From Escherichia phage a20: a stretch of 64,000 nucleotides of DNA. The notes under the pieces are model-generated. The model worked only from the letters and a program-made list of their open reading frames with translations. It was not told the origin of the DNA and ran no database searches. Positions 1,046 to 52,552 of the stretch are shown piece after piece; positions within the stretch are counted from its first letter, which is position 1; each line of letters starts with the position of its first letter. The stretch lies in the sequence record OQ067374.1. One strand, 5' to 3'. The translations under genes were made by a program, and so were the position numbers.

Positions 1046-1594
1046 TTAACGAGCCCATTTGATGATTTCTGTAATCAAAACATTACGTTCGCTTGCATTA
1101 AATCCTATAACTTTGTTAGCACCATCATGATTAAGTAATTGATACGTTTGGATTTTGTTATGAATTGCAAACTCTTCAAAATGTGAAATGACTGTATTAA
1201 AACCGAATGAAGACAAAGTAATAAGGTCGTCTTCAAAACTTTCAGTCATTTCGTTACGTGTTAAAATAATTGTGAACACATCATGGTTTTGGCAAAGACG
1301 AACATAATCCTGTTCATAAACGTCAAGAACCGAGTCCGCATCTTGTCGAATACGTCCATAAACCCAGTTACTAATATATCCACGGTCTAACAGATAAATC
1401 TTAGTAGGGTCTAAATAATTCAACATCGTTTCGAAACAGCCAACTTCATTTCGAGACTTAACATCGAAACGTCCATCAACTGTTCGTTTAGGGAAATCAA
1501 TCTTTACATATCTTTCACTAATTTCCATTATGTCATTAATGAAAGTTGTTTTACCAGCATTATCCGGGCCATCTACTAAAATAATTTTAGCCAT
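1046..1594 (-). CDS. P-loop kinase (NMP-kinase-like fold)
   Basis: 182 aa; Walker A GPDNAGKTT near N-terminus and LLDRGY resembling the thymidylate-kinase DRY motif. Lies where T4 has beta-gt. Confidence 0.5.
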   Translation of the reverse strand: MAKIILVDGPDNAGKTTFINDIMEISERYVKIDFPKRTVDGRFDVKSRNEVGCFETMLNYLDPTKIYLLDRGYISNWVYGRIRQDADSVLDVYEQDYVRLCQNHDVFTIILTRNEMTESFEDDLITLSSFGFNTVISHFEEFAIHNKIQTYQLLNHDGANKVIGFNASERNVLITEIIKWAR

Positions 1595-1595
1595 T

Positions 1596-2495
1596 TTATT
1601 CCTCGATTACGACATCTTCATATTTAGGTATATTATACGGTGAAGAAATTAAAGCATTAAAGTAGATGAACTCACCAAGACCTGGATGAAATACTTCTTC
1701 AGGATTTTCGAAATATTGAATCTTCGGACGTCCTTTAAGAATTTGATAGTATTCAGTTTTAGTTGGTTTAAAAATTCGAATCAACGCTTCTTCAGGATAC
1801 TTATTTCTGTCGAAGCTATTATTTGGATCGGTTATATAAAGCGGTTGGCCTAATTGAATTGCACATTCAACCACTTGTTCAAAACGATAGCATGGGTCAC
1901 TAATTCGAAATGGATGAAAAATACCATCTAGATGAATAGGAGCCAAATCACCTACAAGACGCTGCATGATGGAAGGACGTATAACTTTCTGCGTTACGAT
2001 AATCTTATTACCATCTGCACCTGCGTTAACCAGCACTTCTTTTTGACGTTCATTCAACACAGTAGTTTGAAGTGAACGATTAACCGACAACATATCGGTT
2101 TTTAAGAATTCGTCAATATAAAAACGTGGTTTATTAGGGTCTGCAGTGATATTGAAATTGAATTCTACATCAAAAGCGCCGTCATATCCGGTGATATCTG
2201 TGATTAGAAAATCACAATCATAATAAGCAATTAATGAATCAACCACAAATTCATTTTCAGTCCAGAAATATTTACGAGTGTTATACGCGTTATCTTTATA
2301 CCATAATGGAACAAACTTAAATTCTGGGAAAAGACGTTCACATTCTTTAATATCAGATGCATTACGTGGATATGTAATCACATCACCTGGATTAGCACGG
2401 TGCAAATGAAGTTGGAAGTTGCCATCCTTAAGGATAGCATACTGCCCAGTTTCATAAGACCGCATACTCAAAATAGGTACGCGGAAAATAGCCAT
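1596..2495 (-). CDS. hypothetical protein at the beta-glucosyltransferase locus
   Basis: 299 aa, tightly packed between the P-loop kinase and the hydroxymethylase; no resemblance to T4 beta-gt or alpha-gt as I recall them; contains a DCD (DxD-like) tripeptide. Confidence 0.55.
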   Translation of the reverse strand: MAIFRVPILSMRSYETGQYAILKDGNFQLHLHRANPGDVITYPRNASDIKECERLFPEFKFVPLWYKDNAYNTRKYFWTENEFVVDSLIAYYDCDFLITDITGYDGAFDVEFNFNITADPNKPRFYIDEFLKTDMLSVNRSLQTTVLNERQKEVLVNAGADGNKIIVTQKVIRPSIMQRLVGDLAPIHLDGIFHPFRISDPCYRFEQVVECAIQLGQPLYITDPNNSFDRNKYPEEALIRIFKPTKTEYYQILKGRPKIQYFENPEEVFHPGLGEFIYFNALISSPYNIPKYEDVVIEE

Positions 2496-3211
2496 TAGTC
2501 AAGGAATCCTTTAACATAATCAAAATCACGTTCAAACACATGGGCACTTACCATGGTATGAGTATAATCACCAACTTCTACACCACATTCGTTAGCGATA
2601 TAATGAAGTAATTTTCCTTGGAGATAAAAATCCAACTGCATAACAACAGCACAGTTCTGAGAACGCATATGACAGTGGGTATAAAGCTTACCATCACGAA
2701 TATAATAAGTCACTGAGTCAGTACATGGATATTCAAGAGTTTCGTCCGAATCAAGCAAAGCCTGATCAGAACTTTCTAGAATTTGGAACACAACTCTTCG
2801 AGAGTTAGGCTTCTCTTTAAGTTCTTTTAGAAGAGCTGGTAATTGGGCCGCAATGCGAGGACCATAGAAAGTGTTGAAGTTCGCCGGCAAAACATCTGAT
2901 TTTGGTTTAGAAATAAATTTAGCGACATTAGGATATGCCTTAAACGCTTCTTCTGCGTTGGTACCACCAGAAATCATAAACTTCCAGAAGTCTTCGGCAT
3001 ATTCATAAGAGATGCGGTTAATACGTGGGTCAGTCATTTTGAATGATGATGGAGTGTCAACAACTACTGTCATAGACCCAATTTCATTACAACGTCCAAT
3101 ACGAGAATCAGTTACGAATTCCGGGTTTTCTAAAATTTCACGATTGACTGCTTTAAATGCGGTTTGAAAATCTGCGGCTTTGATATATTTCATTGTGTTA
3201 TGTTTTCCCAT
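2495..3211 (-). CDS. 42: deoxypyrimidylate hydroxymethylase (thymidylate synthase superfamily, gp42-like, divergent)
   Basis: 238 aa; SRRVVFQ ... YPCTDSVTYYIRDGKLYTHCHMRSQN resembles the catalytic-Cys region of T4 dCMP hydroxymethylase; syntenic with gene 42; GAGGT precedes the ATG. Confidence 0.65.
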   Translation of the reverse strand: MGKHNTMKYIKAADFQTAFKAVNREILENPEFVTDSRIGRCNEIGSMTVVVDTPSSFKMTDPRINRISYEYAEDFWKFMISGGTNAEEAFKAYPNVAKFISKPKSDVLPANFNTFYGPRIAAQLPALLKELKEKPNSRRVVFQILESSDQALLDSDETLEYPCTDSVTYYIRDGKLYTHCHMRSQNCAVVMQLDFYLQGKLLHYIANECGVEVGDYTHTMVSAHVFERDFDYVKGFLD

Positions 3212-3253
3212 GTTTACCTCAATACAATTTATTATATACTCAATTCATAAAGC

Positions 3254-3493
3254 TTATTTGAATTTCTTAGCGATGTTGATATAACGTAAAGCTTCAGCAT
3301 CGATACTTCCAAGAACACTATGAAGAAATGCATCAGCGTAGTATTCCAATTGAACAGGTTCTTTAATCACTTTAGCCGCTTTGGTTCCAAACAGGCCCAT
3401 AAGGGCCTTTTTAAGAATTTGTTCATTAGTGTTCAGTTTCATAGTCAAAATCTCTTCATTAAGTTGGTGGTTAAAAGTTTTTCTAGAAATCAT
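3254..3493 (-). CDS. hypothetical small protein
   Basis: 79 aa ORF in operon context; no motif recognised. Confidence 0.4.
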   Translation of the reverse strand: MISRKTFNHQLNEEILTMKLNTNEQILKKALMGLFGTKAAKVIKEPVQLEYYADAFLHSVLGSIDAEALRYINIAKKFK

Positions 3494-4650
3494 TCTGGGT
3501 ACCTCAAAGCGTCATCAGAGTTAGTTATATCAATAATAGATATAGAATTTTCTGATAACCCATTTTTAGATAACTGACGTTTATAATATCTTTCACAATA
3601 TGTACACGTCGTCCCGCAGATTTCATTAGCACAATCGAAATCTGGATGTCTGAACCACCTTTTTTCTAAAAAGCCATCTAACAAAGAGGTTTCAATATTT
3701 ACTGTATGTGAAAACTCAGTTTCGTTTTCAAGAGTGAAAATAGTCTCTAAAGGCTTCCACAGTTCTAACAAATTACCTTCAAACTTTTCAGAAGCGTATG
3801 CTTCAAGAACTTTCAAAATGTAGTCTGTGCTACCTGTACGTCCTGAAACTTTGAATTGAGTGATACCAATATCATTATAAAGTTTCAAATCTTGAGGACG
3901 AACAAAACGAGTTCTCAACCAGTTAAATGGGTCTGTATCACGAGCTTTAATGCAGTGTTGCATTGGATATCCGTTTAAGGATTTAGCATCATCAGCTGTA
4001 ACATCAGTACTATGGAAAATATAGCAAGAGTCACGATAGCTACAATGTGTTGTATACCCTTTACCAGCATTAGAACAGAACTCATTTACAAGAACTTCAA
4101 ATATTATATTGTTCTTATTGCAAAACTCTGCTGCACGCTTCAGGAAAGAAACTGAACGGTTCTTATGAATTCCACAGCAGACCTTTTTGATATTATATTG
4201 GTCATGCAAGTATTTGATTTGAGTTACAGCATCGACATGTAGAATTGTTGAAACTTCAATCTCAATGTCTTTATTGACTTCACGAACAATTTCCATAACA
4301 ACAGGGTTAGCGATAGTAATACGCCATACGCCTATTGACCAAAGATACTGAACATAATCCTGAATAGCTTTCTTCTTCCACTCAACTAGTTCTCTTTTTG
4401 AACCAGGATTTATCGTGTTGAGTGTATAGTTAAAGCAAATACCTAATTCGTTACAACGTTTAACGTAATCTTCTAACATCTTTTTGTCAACGTCAGGAAG
4501 CCTAAAATCAGGTCTGGCTGCTACAAAAGCCATTTCTCTTGTAGAGCCGTATACTTCGTTTATCAAGCTATTAGGATAAGTTTTATTGAGCTCTACGATT
4601 TTATCAAGAAGAGCTAAATCAAAATTCGTTCCAATTTTAAAAGTATTCAT
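3490..4650 (-). CDS. hypothetical protein with C-terminal CX4CX3CX2C cysteine cluster
   Basis: 386 aa; C-terminal CANEICGTTCTYC plus further scattered Cys; no family confidently assigned. Confidence 0.6.
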   Translation of the reverse strand: MNTFKIGTNFDLALLDKIVELNKTYPNSLINEVYGSTREMAFVAARPDFRLPDVDKKMLEDYVKRCNELGICFNYTLNTINPGSKRELVEWKKKAIQDYVQYLWSIGVWRITIANPVVMEIVREVNKDIEIEVSTILHVDAVTQIKYLHDQYNIKKVCCGIHKNRSVSFLKRAAEFCNKNNIIFEVLVNEFCSNAGKGYTTHCSYRDSCYIFHSTDVTADDAKSLNGYPMQHCIKARDTDPFNWLRTRFVRPQDLKLYNDIGITQFKVSGRTGSTDYILKVLEAYASEKFEGNLLELWKPLETIFTLENETEFSHTVNIETSLLDGFLEKRWFRHPDFDCANEICGTTCTYCERYYKRQLSKNGLSENSISIIDITNSDDALRYPE

Positions 4651-4707
4651 TTTTTTTGCATCTCACGTTAATTGATGCGATGGTTTTTGCAGGTCTTACT
4701 TAAATTA

Positions 4708-5097
4708 TTATAGATTCGGTTTATATGATTTAAATGTTTCGAATTCGCCTTTATTCATAAGAGCTTTGAATTCGTCAGGACGCATAGCTTTGTCGTCGAT
4801 AATCCAATCATATACTGGTTTATGTGTTAGCAAATTATGGTACTTCAAACCAATGTTTTCCAAGTTCTGAATCAGACTTGGGAGAATGTCAATTGCTATA
4901 CGTCCAGGACCTACTGACTTCATACCGCGAGCAGTGTAAAGCGTTATGGTATGCCCTGCATCATACAGAGCATTAATAGCAGTCACCATTTCGACGTCTG
5001 GTTTGAAGTTCACGTAATCACGATTGTTATTCCACTCTGTTATACAATCATCGACGTCCACGCAAAGATGTAATGGTTTCATAGCAATATCCTTCAA
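4708..5097 (-). CDS. HAD-superfamily phosphatase-like protein
   Basis: 129 aa; LCVDVDDCIT resembles HAD motif I (DxDx); start may be the second Met at 5082. Its 5' end overlaps the 3' end of the homing endonuclease gene. Confidence 0.5.
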   Translation of the reverse strand: MKDIAMKPLHLCVDVDDCITEWNNNRDYVNFKPDVEMVTAINALYDAGHTITLYTARGMKSVGPGRIAIDILPSLIQNLENIGLKYHNLLTHKPVYDWIIDDKAMRPDEFKALMNKGEFETFKSYKPNL

Positions 5098-5809
5098 TAG
5101 AATTTTTAATATTATCAGCTATACGCTTTCTAGGAATACCCGTTTTCTTTTCAGCTATCCTAAGAGATTCATAGTAATTTTCGTTTATTTTAACAAATTT
5201 TTGAGACTTGTGAGCATTTTTGCTTTCGTCCTGATATCGATAATTAAGATATTTAGGCGATTTTACTCTCTTTTGAATCGTGGCAGAAGATATACCCAAA
5301 TCTTTAGCCGCTTCCCGACAGGATTCATAATATTTGCCATCTACATTAATCTTTAGACCATGTAATGCAGGTTTACCATACCTCCTGTGCTTTTCTTTAC
5401 CCCTAGCTATAGATTCAGCTGACAAAGTTTTACCCCATCTTGGGTTTTTATCACCAACTAAACGTCCTTTATTTGCCTTAGAAATTTTATCCTTGGACCT
5501 TTGGGATAACCCGTCAGAACCGCCTTCGCCACCAGTTTTAAGATTGTAATAATTTGGGTCTTTAACTATGTCTAATGTTATTAGAGCCTTTTCAGCTATT
5601 TTTAATTCTTCTCTCGAGCTATGGTAGGAAATGATTTCTTTAAGAAAATTTTCCTTCCCGTATTTCCTTTCAGCCTTTTTATATAATTTACCAGAACCTT
5701 TATATAAATCTAAAGGCTCGGCTTCTTCAGCCGAGTGCATTCCTAAATAAACTTTACCGTTTATAAGATTAGTAGTTTTGTAGAGATAATGTATCAAATT
5801 CGTTCCCAT
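5048..5809 (-). CDS. GIY-YIG homing endonuclease (seg-like)
   Basis: 253 aa; N-terminal IHYLYKTTNLINGKVYLGMHS is a GIY-YIG module; basic C-terminal DNA-binding region. Confidence 0.8.
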   Translation of the reverse strand: MGTNLIHYLYKTTNLINGKVYLGMHSAEEAEPLDLYKGSGKLYKKAERKYGKENFLKEIISYHSSREELKIAEKALITLDIVKDPNYYNLKTGGEGGSDGLSQRSKDKISKANKGRLVGDKNPRWGKTLSAESIARGKEKHRRYGKPALHGLKINVDGKYYESCREAAKDLGISSATIQKRVKSPKYLNYRYQDESKNAHKSQKFVKINENYYESLRIAEKKTGIPRKRIADNIKNSIEGYCYETITSLRGRR

Positions 5810-7479
5810 TGATGAGTGATATCGCCACCGATTGGACGATAGGAAACACCAGTTTCTTTATCAGTTAGTACCCATTTACCAGGATTTTTTGTAATCAGAG
5901 TAGCCGTTACAGGTTCTGCTACGTCATAACTAATAGAGCCGTCTTGAAGTACACGGCCCATATTACGTAATTGCTTAGTCAGAAGTTCCATACCTTTATA
6001 ATATGCGGCTACCGCTTTAAGTGGATTATTCTTGAAATAACCACCTAATGCAATCCAGATAATTGCCACTGCCAAATGATGATACTCGTTAAACGAACTC
6101 ATCTTTCCATATTTGTAAACTAATGGATTGATGTTAATAGTCACATTACAAGTTGTTTCATCAATAGTAAACTGTCCCCAGGTCGGATTAGCATTGAATT
6201 CATCATAACCTGAAACAGCATAAAGCACTTTAGCTTCATCATACAATTTTGGCCCGTAAATCTTGGTTTCGCCAAAATATCCACGAGGGTCGATAAACTT
6301 AACTTCGCCGTTATCAGTAATCATAGTATTACTGAAGTTCGGGTCACCATGAATAACAGAGTACTGTCCCTGAGAACGGTTATGATAACGAATAAGATGT
6401 TCTAAAGCTTGTTTCAGCATTGGCTTCAGACGTCCAATCTTAGTGTAGTTCACATGTGTGATTTTACCAAATGAATCAATCAATGGTTGAATGCTTTCAC
6501 AACGATCAATAACTTTCGTATAGAATTCTTTAGTGAAATCACGACGAACAGTTTCAGGACTTACAAAATAAGTGTCTGTGCTGAATTTCAGTGCATCTAA
6601 AATTGTATCAACAATTTGTGGACGAGCAAGACTTGATTTGGATTTAATATATTCAAATGCCGGCTTACCTTTAATGCGTTCCATTTCAAAGTTATTTTCA
6701 TTAACAGAAACTAACTGAGGGACTGAATCTGATTTCACTTTCAAATACCACGAAATCTCATCTTTCTGAAGAGCTCGGCCCTGTTCGGTTAATGCGAATT
6801 TAGTTACAGTTTCTTCACCGATTTCAACTGCATTAAAACTACGATTAAGTTCACGAACTTCATGAGCTTTTTCAAGTTTAGGCATATCACCTAAATCAAT
6901 TAGATTCATAAGCTCTGATTTATTGAATGCGCCGCTGTAAAGGAATTCTACGAAATCACGTCCTTTGCAGTATTCATGAATTTCTTCATCAGTAGAACCC
7001 ATATAGAATTCCCAGTCTTTGAACTGATAAATTCCTACAACATTACCACCTGTTGAACCTACGTTAGTGATATTTTCACCGTCGAAATTATATCGACATT
7101 CGTCGCCCTTAACATAGATTGCGTTAACATTCCAAGACCATGAACCAAAATCGGGAATAATATCACACCAGTTAACAATTACATTATGGCCGTCTAAATC
7201 TTTGTGTAATTTAGCAAGAGCATAAGCAGATCCATACGCTTCATCAACTGTACGAATAGTCACATTGAACCCTTCTTGCTCACAATAAGCTCGAACAGTT
7301 TCAGCAAATTTTGAATGAACTACTACAATAATTTCATCTGCGCCTAGGTCAGAATAAATTGTATACAAATTGCTCAGAATAGTGTCTTGTTTATAGTTAA
7401 CAAGCACCTTAGGAATATGGTGAGTAATTGGATATAAACGAGTTGCCAGTCCAGCACCAAGAATAACAGCTTTTTTCAT
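5794..7479 (-). CDS. bifunctional sugar-1-phosphate nucleotidyltransferase / APH-like sugar kinase
   Basis: 561 aa; N-terminus MKKAVILGAGLATRLYPITHHIPKVLV is the classic G-x-G-T-R-x-x-P nucleotidyltransferase signature; C-terminal VIHGDPNFSNTMI ... FIDPRG is the HGD-x4-N catalytic loop of APH/choline-kinase-type kinases. Confidence 0.75.
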   Translation of the reverse strand: MKKAVILGAGLATRLYPITHHIPKVLVNYKQDTILSNLYTIYSDLGADEIIVVVHSKFAETVRAYCEQEGFNVTIRTVDEAYGSAYALAKLHKDLDGHNVIVNWCDIIPDFGSWSWNVNAIYVKGDECRYNFDGENITNVGSTGGNVVGIYQFKDWEFYMGSTDEEIHEYCKGRDFVEFLYSGAFNKSELMNLIDLGDMPKLEKAHEVRELNRSFNAVEIGEETVTKFALTEQGRALQKDEISWYLKVKSDSVPQLVSVNENNFEMERIKGKPAFEYIKSKSSLARPQIVDTILDALKFSTDTYFVSPETVRRDFTKEFYTKVIDRCESIQPLIDSFGKITHVNYTKIGRLKPMLKQALEHLIRYHNRSQGQYSVIHGDPNFSNTMITDNGEVKFIDPRGYFGETKIYGPKLYDEAKVLYAVSGYDEFNANPTWGQFTIDETTCNVTININPLVYKYGKMSSFNEYHHLAVAIIWIALGGYFKNNPLKAVAAYYKGMELLTKQLRNMGRVLQDGSISYDVAEPVTATLITKNPGKWVLTDKETGVSYRPIGGDITHQWERI

Positions 7480-7663
7480 GTTGTGGTCCTCATTGGTAAG
7501 TAGGAGTATTGTACACTATTCTAGTTAAAGCATTCATACTTTGCTTGTAGTCCAATCATAATCCATCCAATTACAAGTGTTGGAATCATTACCGGAGCCG
7601 TTAAGCTCCAGTAGATAGTCATGACAAGCATCAATAGTAAAAGTCCTATTGCTATTGCTTTCA

Positions 7664-8296
7664 TTATTCGCCTCGTAACATGGCACCTAGTGCACCACCA
7701 GGGTGGAACTTAAGGAAATCATTAGAGGTAAATCCACGTTCAGACGAAAGGTTGATAGCAAACGTATCGATAAGCGCTAACAACAATGTAGTGGACATAG
7801 TCGGAGCCAGAGAATTCTCATCAACCTCTACTGCGATGCCTGTACAGAAAGAGTAATCAAAAAGGGCTTCATTTTCTTGTGGAATGTCTGGGTTACAATG
7901 CAACAGAATCTGTTTGACGTTCGGACGAATCATTTTAAGATGCTTAGCCACGCCTATCATTTCTTCAGTTTTACCAGAACGACTAATATGAATCAACACA
8001 TCATTAGGCGCAATGAATCCTGCATCACCGTGAGAATAATGCCCAGTGTTCAAGTACATACTCGGGATACCTAGTGAAGCAAAAGTCTCGGAAGCTTTAG
8101 TTGCGATATTAGCATTCTTACCAACACCTGTAATAATTACTCGGCTTTCATAATTACTAAGTCCCGGGCGTCGAAGAGTTTCTAGAATAGCATTATAACG
8201 AGCAGGGTTTTGACTAATTACTTTGGCCATAGCGGCCAAAGAAGAAGCTTGTTTTATGATTGCGTCAATAGCGATAGTAATAGGAGTAGTTTTCAT
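7664..8296 (-). CDS. SIS-domain sugar-phosphate isomerase (KdsD/KpsF-type, arabinose-5-phosphate isomerase-like, no CBS domains)
   Basis: 210 aa; VIITGVGKNANIATKASETFASLGIPS...HGDAGFIAPNDVLIHISRSGKTEE and LAPTMSTT...FHPGGALG align closely with the SIS domain of E. coli KdsD as I recall it. Confidence 0.75.
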   Translation of the reverse strand: MKTTPITIAIDAIIKQASSLAAMAKVISQNPARYNAILETLRRPGLSNYESRVIITGVGKNANIATKASETFASLGIPSMYLNTGHYSHGDAGFIAPNDVLIHISRSGKTEEMIGVAKHLKMIRPNVKQILLHCNPDIPQENEALFDYSFCTGIAVEVDENSLAPTMSTTLLLALIDTFAINLSSERGFTSNDFLKFHPGGALGAMLRGE

Positions 8297-8336
8297 ATTT
8301 CTCTCATTTAATTAGTTTACCGTCCATGGCATTATA

Positions 8337-11048
8337 TCAAAAATCGAACATATCGAACAGAGATGCTTTCTTCTCGTAATCGAGTTTCGCTGCTGATGTG
8401 AATCCTTCAAGTGGTTTAATAAATGTCTTCTCAAGGAGAACAGTGTAGTCCATCCAATGAAGTACGTCGTCTTTAATTAAATCTGTGATTTCAGTGCCAG
8501 AAGGCCATGCGATACATTTATCACCGAATGGGTTTCCTTCACGTAAAGGCAGAACATATACTTTTTCACCTTCTACAACTTGCGGTGCATCGATATTACC
8601 TTTGATAGCCCGGTTATATGTCAGAATTCCACGAATATGGAACGGACATTTGGGACCAGGGAATCCACCTACGTCATATTTAGCAATGTTATTCGCAGAA
8701 GATACCGACGCGATGCTAATATAATTCAATTGGCGGAATTCTTTTTCAAACTCTTTAAAATATTCTTGTAATGATTCTTCACCTTCTTGAAGCATACGAC
8801 GAATACATTCTTTAAGAGCTTTCTGTACTGCTTTAGGAGTCGAAGATTTCTGTGTTTCGAGACCCATGATTTTAAGCTTAGGTTCAGCGTATCTGGTTCC
8901 TTCCATATCCCACACGTTTAATGCATAACGTTTCTTACCAGTCCAGAATCCACCAATACCTTTAGAACCGAGCGGAGGACCAGCGATAGCTTCTCGGTCC
9001 ATGAACATCAAATGTTGCTTATTATTCATGTATTCGCACATTTCACGGAAACCTCTATCAATAGCAGGTTCCATACGTTCACGAGCGAACTTATCTAAGA
9101 AGTCTACCCAATGGTTGGTATCACGGAATTTAGATTCACCAACCTTATCGATAATTTTATCAGCAGATACGTAAATAGAGTCTGTATCACCATATAGAAC
9201 GAAAGCTTCACCTTCTGTACCACAAACTTCATTCAGATATTCATTAACTTTACGTTCAATCCACTGTAAAGCCATTTGACCAAATGTTGTGATTGCAGTA
9301 GCATTACGCAAATCATAATAACGGAACCAAACGTTGCCAAGTGCACCATAAAGTGAGTTGATAAGCAATTTACGGTTAATCTGTGCAGTCATACCTGCAA
9401 CTTCAGTACGTTGAGCTCTAAACAACATTTCATTAAGAGATTTAGCAGACAACTTTTTAATCTTTTCTTTAATCTCATCACTGAAGTCGAAACGATAATC
9501 AACATCTAATGGTTCGTCAACAGAAAGATTAGGATTATGCAATGCCTCTTTAATTATTTCACCATTACGTTGAGCTGCAAGCATGTAACCTTTATGTTCT
9601 TTACGTTGATTAAAGACCTTAGTGATTTCAGTTGGAACTACACCATCACGGTCTTTATAATACATCATGCCGTTAGGAGAGCAACTGTACACATCTGAAG
9701 GACGTTCAGCGATTGCGTTAATATAATCATGCAGTGGAGCTACTTTAAACGTTCCTGCTATTGTTTCCGGGCTAATATTCACTTGGCGAATAATACTTGG
9801 ATACAGAGATGTAAGGTCGAAACTCATTACATATTTGTATCGATTTGGAATAGGTTCCTTAACAAAAGCGCCAGGATAAGGTTGAACCGGGTGAGAACGA
9901 CCTTGTGGAATCACCTTGTTCTGCTCTTTAAGGCTATTAAAAATAATAGCATCCCATGTTTTAATTGGACTGAACACAGATTGAATCTGAATTTTAGCAT
10001 AATAACCCATGTCCAAGCTCAAGTTAATGAACTGGCGTTTAGCATCAATTTGCAATACACGATATACGTCGATGATGTTATAGCTTATATATCGTTGATG
10101 ATTACTTTCGCGAAGTTTAGAAATAGGACCGTCATATTTCAGTTTACCAACGTTCAATTCAAATTCTGAAATGTAATCCAGAGAATACGACGGTTGATTG
10201 GTAAAAGAGAATTTTTTGTAAAGGTCAATGTAATCAAGAACAGAGATACCGAACAATGTAATGATTTCACGAGAACCATACATGTTTTCGATAACTTTAA
10301 CACGAGTTTTACGATGCGGTGATAAACGTTTCGCAGTAGATTCGCCAAAAATATTCTTGATTCGGTTATACACATATGGAATATCAAATGACTCAACGTT
10401 CCATCCAGTCAAAATGACAGGAGTTTTCTGTTGCCAGAAGTTGAGATATTCCATCAACAATTCTTTTTCGTTATCGAACGGCATATAAATGATTTTATCG
10501 ATAATTTCAGATGGAACTTCATCACCGCCTTGTTCTTGAAGCTTAGCAGCGATTTCAATAGACCATTCTTCTACATTACCATACGGAGAATTCAATAGAT
10601 CAAATACGTAGAACCTGTCGTCAATTGAGTCATAATGGGTGATAGCATCAATCGGATGTTTTGCTTGTGACGGCTCAGGGAACCCATCCGGAGATGTTAC
10701 TTCGATGTCGAAGTTAGCCACACGAATTTTTGTATGGTCGTATTTGATTTCATAGTTATAAGTGTCAGACAAATACGCCAATTTGAAATCGTCCATGCCA
10801 AGTGCTTCAAGTCCGATATCTTCCATGCGTTTAATCCATTGGGAGGCATCACGCATATTAGCGAACAACTTACGAGTACACGGTTTACCGTAGATATCGA
10901 AATATTTCGTAGCCTGACTTTCTGGACAATGAGCAAACAGTGATGGTTTATATTCTACTTCACGAGTACGTTCACGGCCATTAGAATCGATGTAACGTTC
11001 AAAAATTGAATCACCAATCTGTTCAACCGTTAAGTAAAATTCTTTCAT
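8337..11048 (-). CDS. 43: DNA polymerase (family B)
   Basis: 903 aa; exonuclease FDIE and polymerase YGDTDS motifs; reads as RB69 gp43 from memory. Confidence 0.97.
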   Translation of the reverse strand: MKEFYLTVEQIGDSIFERYIDSNGRERTREVEYKPSLFAHCPESQATKYFDIYGKPCTRKLFANMRDASQWIKRMEDIGLEALGMDDFKLAYLSDTYNYEIKYDHTKIRVANFDIEVTSPDGFPEPSQAKHPIDAITHYDSIDDRFYVFDLLNSPYGNVEEWSIEIAAKLQEQGGDEVPSEIIDKIIYMPFDNEKELLMEYLNFWQQKTPVILTGWNVESFDIPYVYNRIKNIFGESTAKRLSPHRKTRVKVIENMYGSREIITLFGISVLDYIDLYKKFSFTNQPSYSLDYISEFELNVGKLKYDGPISKLRESNHQRYISYNIIDVYRVLQIDAKRQFINLSLDMGYYAKIQIQSVFSPIKTWDAIIFNSLKEQNKVIPQGRSHPVQPYPGAFVKEPIPNRYKYVMSFDLTSLYPSIIRQVNISPETIAGTFKVAPLHDYINAIAERPSDVYSCSPNGMMYYKDRDGVVPTEITKVFNQRKEHKGYMLAAQRNGEIIKEALHNPNLSVDEPLDVDYRFDFSDEIKEKIKKLSAKSLNEMLFRAQRTEVAGMTAQINRKLLINSLYGALGNVWFRYYDLRNATAITTFGQMALQWIERKVNEYLNEVCGTEGEAFVLYGDTDSIYVSADKIIDKVGESKFRDTNHWVDFLDKFARERMEPAIDRGFREMCEYMNNKQHLMFMDREAIAGPPLGSKGIGGFWTGKKRYALNVWDMEGTRYAEPKLKIMGLETQKSSTPKAVQKALKECIRRMLQEGEESLQEYFKEFEKEFRQLNYISIASVSSANNIAKYDVGGFPGPKCPFHIRGILTYNRAIKGNIDAPQVVEGEKVYVLPLREGNPFGDKCIAWPSGTEITDLIKDDVLHWMDYTVLLEKTFIKPLEGFTSAAKLDYEKKASLFDMFDF

Positions 11049-11129
11049 TTAATTTCCTTTAGACGAGTTATTGTCTTTTGTTTGTTGATGAACTTATTAT
11101 ACTCCAAATGGGACCGAAGTCCCATTGCT

Positions 11130-11498
11130 TTAATTACCAATTGTATATTTTGCTTTCAAAGTCCAGTCATCTTTCTGTTTAAAAGAGATAACACGAAAGT
11201 TATTAGTCAGGCCAAACAGATCTTCACGAGCAGAGTCTTCAATAACAATCAAGCCCCAGTCTTCAAGCAACTGGGCAATCGAATCACGTCGCTGATAGTC
11301 TTCACCGTCAATATCAACCTGACGTCCATCCATACGCAACATTTCTTTAAAGTGGACGATGTAATATTTACCTTGCTTTTGGAGTATATGACAGGACTGA
11401 TAAAGGACTTTATCCTTGTTATTAGCGATGCCCATACGGGTCAAAGTCTCTTTGACTTTCAGAAAATCTTCAGGGTTCTTCAATTTAATTTCGATCAT
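11130..11498 (-). CDS. regA: RegA translational repressor
   Basis: ORF track gives 11130..11507; T4 RegA begins MIEI..., so start set at the in-frame Met at 11498; strong match to T4 RegA. Confidence 0.9.
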   Translation of the reverse strand: MIEIKLKNPEDFLKVKETLTRMGIANNKDKVLYQSCHILQKQGKYYIVHFKEMLRMDGRQVDIDGEDYQRRDSIAQLLEDWGLIVIEDSAREDLFGLTNNFRVISFKQKDDWTLKAKYTIGN

Positions 11499-11500
11499 TT

Positions 11501-12064
11501 TTACCATTCCAATGCTAATTTTTTAAATTGTTTTTGTTCTTTCACATTTTTTGTAACTTCTTTGAGAAACTCATCAGTGACCATGGCCTTCAGTTCTTTA
11601 AGGACTATTGGCAACTTGTTATTTTTTTCAAGGAGCCGCTTATACTCGGTAGCATCATTCATGTTGATTGTGTAATGTTTCATCAACAGTTTGATAACTA
11701 GTAACTCTGAAGTGTCTTCAACTAGTTTAGCCCATTTAGAGAATCGACGACCACGCGGAATTGCCGCCATCATATAGTTGAAGTGTGCTTCATCACTTAA
11801 TTCAGAACCGACTAAGTTCATCATGTAAACAGCTGGCATACATTCCGGGAACTGGGATAATGAGTTCTCAACCATAAATTTTGAGTAGTCGACCTGAGCA
11901 ATTGACATAGATTTCTTTTCATTAATAGCATTAATGATTTTAAAGAATTCATTCTCAGGTTTTTCTTTAAACATATCAGCACATTTTTGAATCGCATCAG
12001 CGTCATTAGACTTCCATGCAATTTGGTGCTCGTTAAGCCGGACGTCATCATCGAATAAGTTCAT
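11501..12064 (-). CDS. 62: clamp loader small subunit
   Basis: 187 aa; synteny 45-44-62-regA-43 and similarity to T4 gp62. Confidence 0.9.
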
Positions 12065-12065
12065 A

Positions 12066-13028
12066 TTATTTCCAAGTCAGTTCACAAGTCAATTGAAGAA
12101 GCATATACATAACATGTAATTCAATATTACTAGCTAGTCCATGAAACTTATTATTTTCGCCTGCAATTTCGTAAAGCGAAATAATACTTTTACCAGGTGC
12201 AACTTGGTCATAACATTCTGAAACTAATTTATCGATGAACCATGAATAATCTGCAGCATATTTTGGAGCTAATGCACGAAGTTGTTTGATATCTTTGTTC
12301 TTCATTGCTTCGATAACATCAGAGACTGTGCCACGGTCATTAGTTACGATAGACAGAATACCTGCATCGAGAACACCTTTAGACGAGTACTGGTCTAATT
12401 GTCCAATTGTACGACGAAAGTCCGGGAAGTTCTTTTTAACCAGAGCTGCAACAACTTTCATATCAGCGATTTCGATATTTTCGTTCTTACAGATTTCAAC
12501 CATACGATGAATCATTTTCTTCATCATCGAGATTTTATCTTCTTCGGTTGGACGTCCGAATTCGATAACTCGACAACGACTACGTAATGGTTCAATAATT
12601 CCATCGATGTTGTTAGCAGTAATAATAATAGAACAGTTACTAGAGAATTCTTCCATGAATGTACGAAGGTGCCGTTGTGATTCAGCAAGGCCACTACGGT
12701 CAAATTCATCGATAACGATAACTTTCGGCTTGCCTTCCATTGAGACTGAACGAGCGAATGCAGTTAACGGACCACGCACAAAATCAATCTTACAATCAGA
12801 ACCGTTGACGAACATCATTTCAGCGTTGATATCGTTACATAATGCTTTTGCTACGGTTGTTTTACCTGTACCAGGAGAAGGAGAGTGCAAAATAATATGA
12901 GGAAGTTTTCCTTTAGATACTAAAGACTTGAATGTTTCATGGTCATACGCAGGCAGAATACATTCGTCAATGGAAGAAGGACGATATTTCTGTTCTAGAA
13001 TGTGTTCTTTGGAATTGATAGTAATCAT
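12066..13028 (-). CDS. 44: clamp loader large subunit (AAA+)
   Basis: 320 aa; Walker [11 protein letters not shown]; synteny. Confidence 0.92.
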
Positions 13029-14530: not shown

Positions 14531-15247
14531 ATGAATTATAACTCAATATACGAAAAGCTTATCACCAATGCTAAATCAAGAAGTTTAGATGGTTATACAG
14601 AACGTCATCACATTATACCACAATGTTTAGGTGGAAGTGATGATGCTTTAAACTTAGTAGACTTAACACCGGAAGAACATTATTTGGCACATCAACTGTT
14701 GGTAAAAATCCATCCAGATAATGCCTCTTTAATATATGCCGCTCGTATGATGACCATATCATCTCCTAAAGCAGATAGAAGCAAAAACAAATTATTTGGA
14801 TGGCTTCGACGTAAGAATCAAGAAGTTCAAAAGAATAAAGAATTCACTGCTGAAACCCGTAAGAAAATGTCCGAGTCTGCAAAAAATAAACCAAAGATTA
14901 CCTGTCCACATTGTGGTTTAACTGGAACTGAAGGAAACATGCGACGTTGGCATTTTGATAATTGTAAACAAGGTCCAACGCCTAAAATAGTAAAACTTGA
15001 TCAAGAAACAAAAGATAAAATAATTAAAACCATGGCCACGAAAATTTGGAAAGAAGATTCTTGCCCGTTTTGTGGCTTAACTACTAAGTTATCGGCGTTA
15101 AAGCCACATATAAAATTCTGTAAATCAAATCCTAACAGAAAGAAAAAAGAGGACAAGAAAATTAAATGTCCTCATTGCGATAAAATAGGGATCCCTGCTA
15201 ATATGCATCGTTGGCATTTCGATAATTGTAAATATAAGCCTCATTAA
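14531..15247 (+). CDS. HNH homing endonuclease (mob-like) with C-terminal zinc-finger repeats
   Basis: 238 aa; ERHHIIPQCLGGSDD...EEHYLAH HNH core; three C-terminal CPHCG...HFDNC units; transcribed opposite to flanking genes. Confidence 0.8.
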   Translation: MNYNSIYEKLITNAKSRSLDGYTERHHIIPQCLGGSDDALNLVDLTPEEHYLAHQLLVKIHPDNASLIYAARMMTISSPKADRSKNKLFGWLRRKNQEVQKNKEFTAETRKKMSESAKNKPKITCPHCGLTGTEGNMRRWHFDNCKQGPTPKIVKLDQETKDKIIKTMATKIWKEDSCPFCGLTTKLSALKPHIKFCKSNPNRKKKEDKKIKCPHCDKIGIPANMHRWHFDNCKYKPH

Positions 15248-17412: not shown

Positions 17413-18428
17413 TGTGTTGCCTCAATATAAAGTTCGTTGGAATATTTGACCAGCGCTTCTCTGTCTTCGTCTGAGATATCTGGAATCGCGTCAATATATT
17501 CTTTAATGATATCTTGAAGTGATTTAATCTCGATTTCCTGGTCGTCATCAGATTCAACACTGTTATCAACTTTAGAAACCATACGAAGAGAGTGAACTAC
17601 TTTTTCAAGTTCAGATTCAAACTTAGTCAACTCTGAATCAATTTCTGATACTATAACACGTACAGCTAGATTAGTATAATCAGAATAATTGATTTTGCCT
17701 TTAAACGGATAAGTGATTCGTCGATGCCATGTTGTTTCATTAGGAATAAATTCCATACGTTCAACATCAGTGTCAAATACCCAGAATCCGCGCGGGTCGT
17801 TCTCATCACCTGCAGTAAGGGTCCATGGTGTCCCAATATATTTGACGTTAGCAGCTTCAGAGATTGTGTGGAAGTGGCCAGACCAGACTTGTTTATAAGT
17901 CTTTAAGAAATCAGGTTCAAGCCCATGAGACTTCATCCCTTTATAGAAATAAAAGCCATTCAGTTCCCAGTGCCCAACACAATACGCTGCAGAAGAAGTC
18001 TTGATGTGCTCTAAGATTTCACCTGTATTTTCTTCACACATCCATGGAACGATATCAATCAGACATCCGTCAAAATCTACAGTAGTTGGATGCTCGTAAA
18101 TAGTAAAGTTTTCAAATTGAGTTAACAATTCAGAAACAGTGTTAGGTGTTATTGTATTCTTAAACGCCATGTCATGGTTTCCTATCGTGACATGAACGTG
18201 AATGCCTGCTTTAGAAATCATATCAACGATTTCACGATTGAATTCCATTGTACGATGTGTTATTGCTTTACGGACGTCGAACCAATCACCGTACTGAATC
18301 CAAGTTTTAATCCCGTGTTTCTTAGAGTATTCAATTGCTTGACGAATACCATCACGTTGAATATCTTGAACCCATGGGTCGTCTTGTTTGACTCCGATAT
18401 GGAAGTCGCCTAAGTGCAAAATTTTCAT
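17409..18428 (-). CDS. 47: recombination endonuclease subunit (Mre11/SbcD-like)
   Basis: 339 aa; MKILHLGDFHIG metallophosphatase motif. Confidence 0.92.
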   Translation of the reverse strand: MKILHLGDFHIGVKQDDPWVQDIQRDGIRQAIEYSKKHGIKTWIQYGDWFDVRKAITHRTMEFNREIVDMISKAGIHVHVTIGNHDMAFKNTITPNTVSELLTQFENFTIYEHPTTVDFDGCLIDIVPWMCEENTGEILEHIKTSSAAYCVGHWELNGFYFYKGMKSHGLEPDFLKTYKQVWSGHFHTISEAANVKYIGTPWTLTAGDENDPRGFWVFDTDVERMEFIPNETTWHRRITYPFKGKINYSDYTNLAVRVIVSEIDSELTKFESELEKVVHSLRMVSKVDNSVESDDDQEIEIKSLQDIIKEYIDAIPDISDEDREALVKYSNELYIEATQ

Positions 18429-18472
18429 ATTATTTCCTCATTAGTTAATTCATTTTATCATCCGTTTATAAA

Positions 18473-18498
18473 GCAAAAAAGGAACTCCGAAGAGTTCC
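18473..18498 (-). terminator. rho-independent terminator-like hairpin
   Basis: GGAACTC-CGAA-GAGTTCC (plus 18481-18498) followed on the minus strand by a T-run (plus AAAAAA 18475-18480), just upstream of gene 47. Confidence 0.5.
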
Positions 18499-18671
18499 TA
18501 TCCACATAGTACACCGTACAGAGGCTCATTTGAACTTTTAAATCGAATGGGCTTGTACGTAATAGTTCCTTCGGCTTTAGCTTTATCATAAGACTCTTTA
18601 AAACGTCTCGTTCTTTCTGCTTTGCCTTTACGGATTTTATCGAAATTTTCAGAAGTCGGGATGTTCGTCAT
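18498..18671 (-). CDS. hypothetical small protein (not on ORF track)
   Basis: About 57 codons from ATG at 18671 with GAGG upstream; ends at the terminator hairpin. Hand translation, low confidence. Confidence 0.3.
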   Translation of the reverse strand: MTNIPTSENFDKIRKGKAERTRRFKESYDKAKAEGTITYKPIRFKSSNEPLYGVLCG

Positions 18672-18710
18672 GCATAAGCACCTCTCAGAAAATGCCTAAA
18701 TCAATTTCTC

Positions 18711-18932
18711 TCATCGTTTCCACCATTTCTTAACTTGAAATGAATCGACCCACACGAGTTGTTTTGGGTCTGCCTTTACAATAGGCGGACAAATTTCTGT
18801 AATAGAACCGTCGTGATATTCCTTTTCAGAAATTTTAACACAAAGAGGACCTCCCAATTTAAGGGTGAACCCTGCGTTCAGCTTCAGACGTTTAAACTTT
18901 GTTTGAACTAGCGCCATTAATGATGTCCTCAA
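18711..18932 (-). CDS. hypothetical protein
   Basis: 73 aa ORF in the 55-47 interval, where T4 carries alpha-gt. Confidence 0.4.
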   Translation of the reverse strand: MRTSLMALVQTKFKRLKLNAGFTLKLGGPLCVKISEKEYHDGSITEICPPIVKADPKQLVWVDSFQVKKWWKR

Positions 18933-26197: not shown

Positions 26198-26533
26198 TTA
26201 ACCGCGGAGCTTATCGAGCTCTTCATAATCAATCCAGGATTCTAGTCCGGACGGCAAATCAGATTCAACATTCCACAGAAGCTCTTCGATGGCTTGTAGG
26301 CGATTATATTCTTCAACAGTAATAGTAACCATTGTTTCAGGCTTTTTAACCATCATGTCATTCATCAGAATGTACAGGTCTTCACAAACAGCTGGGTCGT
26401 CCCATGTCCATATTTCAGCATCTCGAACCAATGAAGCCGGAATCAAATTTAAAACTTCAAGCTTAGTAGGAGCGTCAGGGCCGAGAAGAGTTGCTACAAA
26501 TTTATATGCTTTGGCGAAATCAATATTGTTCAT
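26198..26533 (-). CDS. hypothetical acidic protein
   Basis: 111 aa ORF between nrdC and gene 49. Confidence 0.5.
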   Translation of the reverse strand: MNNIDFAKAYKFVATLLGPDAPTKLEVLNLIPASLVRDAEIWTWDDPAVCEDLYILMNDMMVKKPETMVTITVEEYNRLQAIEELLWNVESDLPSGLESWIDYEELDKLRG

Positions 26534-51817: not shown

Positions 51818-52552
51818 TTACCTTAAGATTGTTTCAATTTTAGAATAAAGCTCTTCTAAAGAGCCGTCGTTTGTAATAACTAAATCGCCTTCTTCAATAG
51901 GCAACCCAGCTTCTGTAATATGTTTATCTGTGGATTCCGTACCAGAGCGAACCACATGAATAACTGTAGCACCCATCGCTCTAGCGGTTTCCATTTCATG
52001 GACTTGGCGTGTATCGGTTACAACATAGTAATCGAAATCACTTCCAATATAATCCATATAGTTTAATGCAAAAAGTTTAACCCAATACATACGGTCAAAT
52101 AAATTAACGACAACATCCGTACCGAGGGCTTGCATAAGACGGCGGATTGACCATGTGTCGTTGATATTATTTATAGCTTCACGCAGGGCTTCATATGGTT
52201 TAATATCTAGATATGAATACCCACCTTCTAATGATGATAATACTTTAACATTATTAATTGGTAAATATTGACTTTGTAAATAAATTAGCGCTTCTTCCAT
52301 TAATTCAATAACATCCAACTTATTGAGATTTAATGGTGTTTCACGGTCGTATCCAATGCCTTCAAAGTATTCGTATTTCAACTCTGTGAATACATCAGGA
52401 TCTTCAGCATGTTTACGTCCCCAGGCTATTGCTAGAGCGTCTTTAATCGGATATGCCAATTGGTATTTTACGGATTTAAAGTTTGAATTGATGTAATCAG
52501 CAGTAGTGTCTTTACCACTACGTTTGATGCCACTTAAAAAGATTAGCTCCAT
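51818..52552 (-). CDS. 1: deoxynucleoside monophosphate kinase
   Basis: 244 aa; LSGIKRSGKDTTAD P-loop and strong match to T4 gp1. Confidence 0.93.
   Translation of the reverse strand: MELIFLSGIKRSGKDTTADYINSNFKSVKYQLAYPIKDALAIAWGRKHAEDPDVFTELKYEYFEGIGYDRETPLNLNKLDVIELMEEALIYLQSQYLPINNVKVLSSLEGGYSYLDIKPYEALREAINNINDTWSIRRLMQALGTDVVVNLFDRMYWVKLFALNYMDYIGSDFDYYVVTDTRQVHEMETARAMGATVIHVVRSGTESTDKHITEAGLPIEEGDLVITNDGSLEELYSKIETILR

Follow-up and report, generated by a model that had tools for sequence, protein, structure and literature searches.

A thymidylate synthase-fold protein of Escherichia phage a20 as a very probable flavin-dependent dCMP 5-hydroxylase

Which enzyme sits between uvsX and gene 43 of Escherichia phage a20 (OQ067374.1), the place that T4 gives to gene 42? 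A preliminary description of the window, that is, the whole 64-kb stretch of DNA analyzed here, had read the ORF at 2495–3211 as a hydroxymethylase markedly divergent from T4 gp42 amid highly conserved core genes, and had offered co-evolution with a different downstream modification or a different substrate as possible reasons. Our analysis points to another activity: the protein is very probably a dCMP 5-hydroxylase (5-hydroxy-dCMP synthase) of the AfhB type, belonging to a branch of the ThyA fold in which folate has been exchanged for a loosely bound flavin.

The gene, its relatives and its distance from T4 gp42

The ORF lies on the minus strand, starts with ATG and encodes 238 amino acids (ORF listing), with a GAGG Shine-Dalgarno sequence 6 nt 5' of the start; no further thymidylate-synthase-family ORF came up when the 64-kb window was searched by tblastn for relatives of T4 gp42 and of E. 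coli ThyA. The window is Mosigvirus (RB69-like) DNA, 98–99% identical at the nucleotide level to Mosigvirus genomes including RB69, and many RB69-like phages encode proteins 100% identical to the ORF product. RB69 gp48 (ORF048c) is identical at 236 of the 238 positions, the two differences being N85D and V107A (Asn85 in the a20 protein, common to many natural phages, is Asp in >90% of the family), and the HY126 AfhB chains in PDB entries 9IQC and 9IQU are ~98% identical, with five substitutions. Homologues are mostly named 'thymidylate synthase' in database records, and several 'dCMP hydroxymethylase'.

Alignment with T4 gp42 gives 54/218 identities (24.8%, 13% gaps, E 3e-13), with likeness only in the PxSRR phosphate loop, at the catalytic Cys and in the MRS, D(F/Y) and H-V-(F/Y) motifs, as anticipated by the earlier statement that only catalytic-core motifs are common to the two proteins; the ordinary gp42 conservation that alignment with gp42 and thymidylate synthases could have brought out was not seen. 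With the same scoring, identity to T4 is 61.7% for gp43, 78.9% for RegA, 73.3% for gp62, 77.5% for gp44, 78.9% for gp45, 81.9% for gp46, 75.8% for gp47, 90.7% for gp55, 79.5% for NrdG and 88.9% for gp49, and 98.6% over 425 aligned amino acids for NrdD. The enzyme thus stands apart from its T4 counterpart while its neighbors do not (24.8% versus 62–99%), and 'highly conserved' holds in a relative sense only, given the value for the polymerase. Accelerated divergence of a gp42 ortholog, by contrast, had to be abandoned: in phmmer the protein scores 29.9 bits with gp42 and 41.8 bits with E. coli ThyA, and so is no closer to the former than to the latter, gp42-type and AfhB-type identities across phage genomes are bimodal without intermediates, and the gene resides in a swapped cassette (see below). 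In the phage collection, gp42 matches drop from about 55% directly to <30% identity; when the gp42 clade in Straboviridae is taken as members with roughly 55% or more identity to T4 gp42, the a20 protein falls well outside it.

Fold, signature residues and reaction

The ORF product matches PF00303 with 56.9 bits (cut-off 24.3) and fails all NCBIfam thymidylate-synthase equivalog cut-offs, the best score being 68.1 bits versus 174.55. Searching the PDB by sequence returned 9IQC, 9IR2 and 9IQU at E 1e-157 to 1e-161, of which 9IQC is titled 'Monooxygenase dependent on riboflavin with dCMP and FAD' and 9IQU 'phage HY126 dCMP hydroxylase-AfhB with substrate dCMP'. An AlphaFold model built from an 81-sequence alignment reached a pLDDT of 86.9 (single-sequence input gave 36.9 and was unusable), and Foldseek with this model yielded TM-scores of 0.94 and 0.88 to 9IQC and 9IQU, respectively, and of 0.7–0.8 to thymidylate synthases. 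The best non-self structure is that of MilA, the mildiomycin CMP 5-hydroxymethylase (5JNH, 5B6D; Foldseek E 1e-16, TMq 0.83, 24% identity), likewise a ThyA-fold enzyme specific for a cytosine nucleotide, but folate-dependent, acting on a ribonucleotide and about 80 residues longer.

The signature residues of the a20 protein are R138/R139, E160, C163, R183/S184, N186, D194 and H224. C163 aligns with ThyA C146 and with the T4 gp42 Cys, N186 (motif MRSQN) occupies the position of ThyA D169, which is Asp in both T4 gp42 and ThyA, and D194 and E160 occupy those of ThyA N177 and L143; these four residues are invariant among all 81 members of the family, the most divergent having 52% identity, and are shared, together with length and fold, with RB69 gp48 and HY126 AfhB (9IQC, 9IR2, 9IQU). 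E. coli ThyA is alike in fold, phosphate-binding arginines and Cys nucleophile (core 29.6% identical over 115 aa), while the a20 enzyme departs from it by N177D, L143E, D169N and a missing C-terminal tail; the ThyA W80/W83 segment finds no matching Trp in a20, in a region where the alignment is uncertain. T4 gp42 resembles the a20 enzyme in ThyA fold, catalytic Cys, dCMP-selecting Asp, acidic L143 position, short C-terminus and locus, and differs from it in retaining Asp where the a20 enzyme has Asn (D169 position), in installing CH2OH from methylene-THF where the a20 enzyme would install OH from O2 via flavin, and in feeding glucosylation where the a20 enzyme would feed arabinosylation.

The AfhB-type enzyme is already known. 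The RB69/HY126 enzyme converts dCMP into 5-hydroxy-dCMP with flavin and O2, and the hydroxyl is then arabinosylated in DNA (NAR 2026, PMC13326640), a paper that cites the 2026 Nat Chem Biol study of He et al. for the same dCMP 5-hydroxylation by HY126 AfhB. RB69 gp48 and dNMP kinase in E. coli give 5hodC in DNA, label from 18O2 appears in the gp48 product, FMN co-purifies with the protein, and in the same assay T4 gp42 yields 5hmdC whereas the RB69 protein yields 5hodC; D169N was proposed as diagnostic of a 5hodCMP synthase, with N177D and L143E also present (PMC13326640). The flavin species differ by source, with FMN in RB69 preparations versus FAD/riboflavin in the PDB titles. The product formed, the derivation of its oxygen from O2 and the binding of flavin are experimental results for the RB69/HY126 proteins, not for that of a20, and the predicted function in a20 is transferred through 98–99% identity to them; the label 'hydroxymethylase' is accordingly to be replaced, the ORF not being a drifted copy of the T4 hydroxymethylase. 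A literature search on AfhB and 'dCMP hydroxylase', from whose scope He et al. 2026 fell out, returned nothing further beyond PMC13326640.

In the mechanism that we propose, Cys163 would add to C6 of dCMP, as throughout ThyA-family enzymes, with the cytosine N3/N4 edge read by Asp194. Rather than attack methylene-THF, the activated C5 would take up an O2-derived oxygen via reduced flavin (presumably as the hydroperoxide), and elimination of the Cys would release 5hodCMP. Phosphorylation by the phage dNMP kinase and by kinases of the host would turn this into 5hodCTP, to be incorporated by the polymerase in place of dCTP, and products of neighboring genes would make UDP-arabinose and arabinosylate the 5-hydroxyl in DNA, yielding a genome shielded from host nucleases. 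We infer the covalent Cys and flavin-hydroperoxide steps and the source of the reduced flavin, rather than take these from experiment. Since RB69 gp48 and HY126 AfhB use flavin and O2, reaction with methylene-THF is expected to be negative.

A true but rapidly evolving T4 gp42 ortholog, still producing 5-hydroxymethyl-dCMP from methylene-THF, would share with gp42 the ThyA fold, the catalytic Cys, the dCMP-specifying Asp, the acidic residue at the L143 position and the locus between uvsX and gene 43, and would agree with those records that carry the name 'dCMP hydroxymethylase'. We consider this very unlikely in view of the 99%-identical RB69 protein, which yields 5hodC and not 5hmdC (PMC13326640), of Asn at the D169 position where gp42 and ThyA have Asp, and of scores that bring the ORF no nearer to gp42 than to ThyA. 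Glucosyltransferase genes, moreover, are absent from the window: no homologue of T4 alpha-gt or beta-gt occurs among its ORFs of at least 60 aa, the uvsX–43 and 47–55 positions both being covered. The chance that the protein is an ordinary thymidylate synthase, converting dUMP into dTMP as the name in many records and the passed PF00303 cut-off would have it, is close to nil given the failed equivalog cut-offs, the dCMP-selecting Asp instead of Asn at the N177 position, Glu instead of Leu at L143 and the lack of the ThyA C-terminal tail.

Other phages do have ThyA-fold dUMP hydroxymethylases, and dUMP, undergoing uracil 5-hydroxylation or hydroxymethylation, would be the different substrate that the preliminary description had raised as a possibility. 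This is extremely improbable: no family member departs from Asp194, which corresponds to N177D, the crystal structure 9IQU contains dCMP, and modified cytidines replace all C in RB69 virion DNA. The substrate is thus still dCMP. For the dCMP 5-hydroxylase, the value of the finding is corrective, in that the AfhB-type gene is misannotated as 'thymidylate synthase' or 'dCMP hydroxymethylase' in a large T4-like phage group whose carriers include many therapeutic candidates (E. coli, Klebsiella, Serratia, Proteus, Acinetobacter), and 5-hydroxycytosine alters how DNA looks to restriction enzymes, CRISPR nucleases, sequencers and possibly innate immune sensors. Replacement of folate by flavin as cofactor in an enzyme with a thymidylate-synthase fold is a striking piece of biology, though one already described in publications of 2025–2026.

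The arabinosylation cassette

The ORF belongs to a swapped 6.6-kb cassette at the position of T4 segA, beta-gt and gene 42, and HY126 and RB69 have the same arabinosylation cassette between uvsX and gene 43. The surrounding glycosylation gene cluster (isomerase, kinase/pyrophosphorylase, HAD phosphatase, glycosyltransferase and nucleotide kinase) lies entirely within 1046–8296. The features are as follows.

1046–1594, minus strand: P-loop nucleotide kinase, thymidylate-kinase-like, RB69 gp45 equivalent (NAR Table 1, PMC13326640); weak dTMP-kinase match
1596–2495, minus strand: first DNA arabinosyltransferase, a single intact 299-aa ORF, RB69 gp46:47 equivalent (NAR Table 1, PMC13326640); annotated as glycosyltransferase in NRG-P0074
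2495–3211, minus strand: very probable dCMP 5-hydroxylase / 5hodCMP synthase, ortholog of RB69 gp48 and HY126 AfhB
3254–3493, minus strand: 79-aa ORF, RB69 ORF049c equivalent
3490–4650, minus strand: U32-family protein, putative Fe-S, RB69 gp50 equivalent (PF01136, E 7e-11)
4708–5082, minus strand: HAD-type sugar phosphatase, RB69 gp51 / HY126 AfhF equivalent (capsule biosynthesis phosphatase TIGR01689, E 1e-13; literature)
5048–5809, minus strand: GIY-YIG (Seg-like) homing endonuclease, 45% identical to T4 SegB
5794–7479, minus strand: bifunctional arabinose-phosphate kinase / UDP-arabinose pyrophosphorylase, 561 aa, RB69 gp52:53 / HY126 AfhE equivalent (literature)
7531–7643, no strand: remnant of the T4 42-imm intergenic region (in T4 upstream of gene 42), matching T4 26237–26349
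7664–8296, minus strand: arabinose-5-phosphate isomerase, SIS domain, RB69 gp55 equivalent (KpsF/GutQ E 2e-32, KdsD E 7e-31)
51818–52552, minus strand: dNMP kinase, T4 gp1 / RB69 gp159 equivalent, only 62.7% identical to T4 gp1

UDP-arabinose genes thus flank the hydroxylase and arabinosylation replaces glucosylation, so that the proposed tie between divergence and a different downstream modification proved well founded. The remnant at 7531–7643 (71% nucleotide identity over 115 nt, E 3e-9) is the right-hand anchor of the cassette swap, and the RB69 ORF054c record bears the same 42-imm remark. The kinase/pyrophosphorylase is a single ORF with an N-terminal NTP_transferase domain and a kinase-like C-terminus, and the RB69 dNMP kinase phosphorylates 5hodCMP (PMC13326640). 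The homing endonuclease is inserted in the a20 cassette, stands outside the pathway and is absent from RB69, which in the nucleotide comparison aligns in two segments that make up 92% of the query. The last 4 nt of the U32 gene are also the first 4 nt of the 79-aa ORF, homologues of which are present at only some T4-like loci. PDB sequence searches with the glycosyltransferase, the bifunctional kinase/pyrophosphorylase, the kinase and the U32 protein gave no match.

The neighboring U32-family gene

The potentially new part of this locus is the U32 gene, whose RB69 counterpart, gp50, is listed merely as 'sugar or heterocycle reductase' (PMC13326640). It lies upstream of the AfhB-type gene, at a distance given as about 40 bp. 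The Thanatos phage paper leaves its U32 homologue undiscussed, and nothing further on U32 in phages was found in the literature covered, which did not extend to He et al. 2026, where the gene may be characterized. The a20 protein has nine Cys that are invariant among 61 homologues. The PF01136 match and the conserved cysteines suggest a likeness to RlhA, TrhP and UbiU/UbiV, but the protein is very distant from these, with different Cys spacing and an extra C-terminal CX4CX3CX2C motif; hhalign against single E. coli TrhP/UbiU sequences gives a probability of only 6–13%, and MAFFT leaves the cysteine motif unaligned. RlhA produces 5-hydroxycytidine in rRNA and TrhP 5-hydroxyuridine in tRNA, both in a prephenate-dependent manner (PMC5727448, PMC6599085, PMC10990095).

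A 40–56% identical U32 homologue occurs at 37 non-T4-like viral or metagenomic loci, and at none of these does an AfhB-type gene occur within ±10 kb; ThyA-family matches in this range are limited to a ThyA-type thymidylate synthase (L036) and a marginal 14-bit match (L065). A gp46:47-type glycosyltransferase is found at about 27 of the 37, one locus having a kinase-glycosyltransferase-U32 module versus kinase-glycosyltransferase-AfhB in a20, and at 7 viral loci a DAHP synthase or DAHP-synthase/chorismate-mutase fusion adjoins the U32 gene, which suggests prephenate supply for the U32 protein. Because the U32 gene recurs beside the same glycosyltransferase family without a nearby ThyA homologue, in some cases with DAHP synthase/chorismate mutase, a second hydroxylase is suggested. 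Tentatively, and with the chances somewhat short of even, the U32 protein may be a prephenate-dependent, O2-independent enzyme that installs the same 5-hydroxypyrimidine handle anaerobically and that serves as the sole DNA-glycosylation hydroxylase in other phage lineages. AfhB and U32 would form an aerobic/anaerobic enzyme pair like NrdAB/NrdDG, UbiIHF/UbiUV and TrhO/TrhP. If true, this would account for an O2-requiring DNA-modification pathway working in the anoxic gut, extend prephenate-dependent hydroxylation beyond RNA and quinones to DNA precursors, and provide phages with a second, widespread means of glycosylating their DNA.

Acinetobacter hosts are strict aerobes, and Acinetobacter phages have AfhB and lack U32. 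These phages fit a strict link between U32 and facultatively anaerobic hosts, but E. coli Dhakavirus WG01 is also without U32; the strict link was therefore rejected and the U32 gene is regarded as accessory. A reading of the DAHP-synthase-like neighbor as a KDO8P synthase acting on arabinose-5-phosphate was likewise considered and rejected: at one locus (L016) the protein scores 237 bits as DAHP synthase versus 63 as KDO8P synthase, and the four fusion proteins contain a chorismate mutase domain.

Identity of the enzyme at 2495-3211

The genes that concern us are listed below, with two homing endonucleases.

Cassette genes and neighbouring elements
1046-1594, kinase
1596-2495, glycosyltransferase (gp46:47 type), single intact ORF, 299 aa
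2495-3211, minus strand, dCMP 5-hydroxylase ORF, 238 aa, ATG at 3211
3490-4650, minus strand, Peptidase_U32 protein, 386 aa (PF01136, E 7e-11), directly upstream of the hydroxylase in the operon
4708-5082, HAD phosphatase
5048-5809, minus strand, SegB-like GIY-YIG homing endonuclease (45% identical), between the phosphatase and bifunctional genes and overlapping both
5794-7479, bifunctional kinase/pyrophosphorylase, single intact ORF, 561 aa
7664-8296, arabinose-5-P isomerase
14531-15247, plus strand (opposite), MobB-like HNH homing endonuclease (43% identical), between the 45.2 and 46 homologues

The hydroxylase ORF, with a GAGG Shine-Dalgarno sequence 6 nt 5' of its ATG, is the sole thymidylate-synthase superfamily member in the window; it meets Pfam Thymidylat_synt (PF00303, 56.9 bits) and passes none of the curated NCBIfam thymidylate-synthase models (best 68 bits versus a cut-off of 174.55). 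The first 9 kb of the window share 98-99% nucleotide identity with Mosigvirus genomes (NRG-P0074, BEU50, RB69 and many others). The RB69 counterpart, RB69ORF048c (gp48), recorded as 'similar to dCMP hydroxymethylase, td', is identical at 236 of 238 residues, and several RB69-like phages encode a protein 100% identical to that of the window. Residue 85 (codon 2957-2959) is Asn in the window and Asp in RB69, HY126 and >90% of 81 family members; Asn85 falls in a loop (residues about 81-110) that is modelled with low confidence and is also common to many natural RB69-like phages.

In a PDB sequence search the top hits, with E values between 1e-157 and 1e-161, were 9IQC/9IR2 (238 aa) and 9IQU (234 aa); typical thymidylate synthases and MilA came next, at about 1e-11. 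Foldseek with an AlphaFold model built from 81 homologues (pLDDT 86.9) likewise gave 9IQC (TM 0.94) and 9IQU (TM 0.88) at 98% identity, and then MilA at 24%. Both entries were released on 2025-07-16, 9IQC as 'Monooxygenase dependent on riboflavin with dCMP and FAD' and 9IQU as 'phage HY126 dCMP hydroxylase-AfhB with substrate dCMP'. A 2018 study reportedly found an arabinosyl cytosine modification in RB69 DNA, said to have been read then as arabinosyl-hmC. DNA of RB69 and of Acinetobacter phage DLP3 carries ether-linked, arabinosylated 5-hydroxycytosine (Lee et al., NAR 2026, PMC13326640; bioRxiv June 2025). RB69 gp48 with phage dNMP kinase yields the 5-hydroxycytosine nucleoside 5hodC in E. 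coli, the product being labelled by 18O2 and FMN co-purifying with gp48 (PMC13326640), and a crystal structure of the HY126 enzyme with flavin and its in vitro reconstitution are cited there to He et al., Nat Chem Biol 2026. The proposed diagnostic residue, D169N (ThyA numbering), beside N177D and L143E (PMC13326640), corresponds to N186 in the window protein, with D194, E160 and the nucleophile C163; all four are invariant in 81 homologues, down to 52% identity, whereas T4 gp42 and ThyA have Asp at the D169 position.

Given 98% identity to HY126 AfhB and near-identity to gp48, which makes 5hodC, the label "hydroxymethylase" of the preliminary description has to be dropped, as does its suggestion of a different substrate: the substrate is still dCMP. 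The function of this gene is already published, not new.

Replacement of the gene 42 region

All translated window ORFs of at least 60 aa were compared with T4 nt 1-100,000 by tblastn. The hydroxylase ORF shares 24.8% identity with gp42 across 218 aa (tblastn E 1e-10; BLASTP E 3e-13), whereas core genes reach 61.7% (gp43), 78.9% (RegA), 73.3% (gp62), 77.5% (gp44), 78.9% (gp45), 81.9% (gp46), 75.8% (gp47), 90.7% (gp55), 79.5% (NrdG), 98.6% (NrdD) and 88.9% (gp49), and baseplate gp6, gp7 and gp8 82-89%. The marked divergence from gp42 beside conserved flanking genes, noted earlier, is therefore real and large, and the residues common to both proteins are indeed confined to ThyA-family motifs, which the earlier reading had called the catalytic core. 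Among large replication and nucleotide-metabolism enzymes of the window, gp43 (8337-11048, 61.7%) and the dNMP kinase gp1 (51818-52552, 62.7%) are the least T4-like, the remainder being 73-99% identical; this may reflect co-adaptation, as both would have to handle an altered cytosine nucleotide.

By phmmer, the hydroxylase reaches 41.8 bits with E. coli ThyA, 29.9 bits with T4 gp42, and gp42 itself 30-32 bits with ThyA, so that on these scores the three are roughly equidistant branches. With T4 gp42 as tblastn query, the matches among 50,697 phage records fall into identity bands of >=90%, 60-80% and about 55%, and then jump to <30%, the Mosigviruses lying at 24.8% with one match per genome. 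The window hydroxylase as query gives the mirror image: >=95%, 60-90% (phages of Edwardsiella, Klebsiella, Serratia, Pectobacterium, Proteus and Acinetobacter), and then about 30% or less. Neither query found intermediates across the phage records, and essentially every genome that matched did so at a single site. In nucleotide alignments, T4 uvsX matches the window at 4-947, and 115 nt at 7531-7643 are 71% identical (E 3e-9) to the 42-imm intergenic region of T4, located upstream of gene 42 there and upstream of a sugar-activation gene in the window. Between these anchors, T4 has 2.7 kb that comprise segA, beta-gt and gene 42; the window has a 6.6-kb cassette. Equidistance, the lack of intermediates and the anchored cassette together rule out drift; by sequence, the gene 42 region is a module swap, and 7531-7643 resembles a scar, or a leftover regulatory sequence, at the site where the cassette replaced the three T4 genes.

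Proposed pathway and cassette genes

Cys163 would add to C6 of dCMP, as ThyA-family chemistry suggests, and C5 would then take up O2-derived oxygen through flavin; for orthologs, both the binding of flavin and the derivation of the oxygen from O2 have been demonstrated, and a flavin hydroperoxide is the presumed intermediate. The resulting 5-hydroxy-dCMP (5hodCMP) would be phosphorylated by the window gp1 homologue (51818-52552), RB69 gp159 being known to accept it (PMC13326640), and the nucleotide would enter DNA and then be arabinosylated, the arabinose-5-P isomerase, bifunctional enzyme, HAD phosphatase, glycosyltransferase and kinase of the cassette supplying the remaining functions. The different downstream modification proposed earlier is thus borne out: the arabinosylation cassette is present, and no alpha-gt or beta-gt homologue occurs among window ORFs of at least 60 aa (tblastn against T4 nt 1-100,000). 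At 18428-18711 the window lacks the segment with alpha-gt and mobB that T4 has between gp47 and a-gt.3, in keeping with loss of glucosylation.

In the RB69 reference genome both the glycosyltransferase (ORF046c, ORF047c) and the bifunctional enzyme (ORF052c, ORF053c) are split, which has been put down to sequencing errors (PMC13326640); the intact 299-aa and 561-aa window ORFs agree with this. In L001, a scanned locus, the two lie at 7596-8496 and 11093-12779. The GIY-YIG gene occurs in NRG-P0074, BEU50 and JM17 and not in RB69 or most relatives; those lacking it match just 92% of the query sequence, split into two pieces. Public records widely misname the cassette (2495-8296), calling the hydroxylase 'thymidylate synthase' or 'dCMP hydroxymethylase', the bifunctional enzyme 'GlmU' or 'dCMP deaminase' and the HAD phosphatase 'phosphoheptose isomerase'.

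The U32 neighbour

Chorismate mutase makes prephenate, and DAHP synthase is the entry to the shikimate pathway. Members of the U32 family include RlhA (5-hydroxycytidine 2501 in 23S rRNA), TrhP (5-hydroxyuridine 34 in tRNA) and UbiU/V, Fe-S enzymes that hydroxylate without O2, with prephenate as oxygen donor (PMC5727448, PMC6599085, PMC10990095); the phage protein appears in the NAR paper solely as a table entry, 'sugar or heterocycle reductase' (PMC13326640). It resembles the characterised U32 hydroxylases only remotely; nine cysteines, including a C-terminal CX4CX3CX2C, are invariant in 61 homologues. Among complete phage genomes it is confined to T4-like phages that infect Enterobacterales or Shewanella, with identity never below 80%. 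The genera listed for 221 U32-carrying records do not include Acinetobacter, while the AfhB query matches 65 records from phages of that genus; in the Acinetobacter phage Konradin, AfhB is present and U32 is absent within ±9 kb, and U32 is likewise absent from E. coli Dhakavirus WG01.

Homologues at 40-58% identity abound in metagenomes and IMG/VR, and we scanned 52 loci (47 IMG/VR, 5 metagenomic contigs; ±10 kb per contig in view). U32 and AfhB occur together in 15/15 T4-like loci; an AfhB-type ORF lies within ±10 kb in 0/37 of the others, whose ThyA-family matches are a genuine ThyA (L036) and a marginal 14-bit match (L065). About 27 of these 37 hold a gp46:47 glycosyltransferase homologue and about ten UDP-arabinose gene homologues. 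The loci with 40-56% identical U32 homologues, among which this co-occurrence is seen, include L011, L016, L017, L019 and L034-L064. L063 reads kinase, glycosyltransferase, U32, DNA polymerase III alpha, that is, the kinase-glycosyltransferase-AfhB module of the window with U32 at the AfhB position. A dCMP deaminase gene lies directly upstream of U32 in L011 and L017, and a DAHP synthase gene directly downstream in L016 (8145-8891) and L034 (9384-10127). DAHP synthase, alone or fused, occurs at seven U32 loci, in four cases fused to chorismate mutase within 1-3 kb of U32 (L045, L047/L048, L049, L059).

DAHP-synthase/type II chorismate mutase fusions
L045, 8399-9430
L048, 7290-8354
L049, 8323-9384
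L059, 11076-12194

The viral DAHP synthases and fusions act here as auxiliary phage genes within a DNA-modification cluster. The glycosyltransferase and UDP-arabinose co-occurrence, the lack of AfhB within ±10 kb and the DAHP/chorismate-mutase neighbours point to the hypothesis that the U32 protein is a candidate prephenate-dependent, O2-independent hydroxylase supplying the glycosylation handle. In the window phage, which also encodes an anaerobic ribonucleotide reductase (NrdD, NrdG), it would complement the O2-dependent AfhB anaerobically. Beside the already published hydroxylase, this role is a side lead that is possibly new. Public records name the protein 'peptidase' or 'collagenase'.
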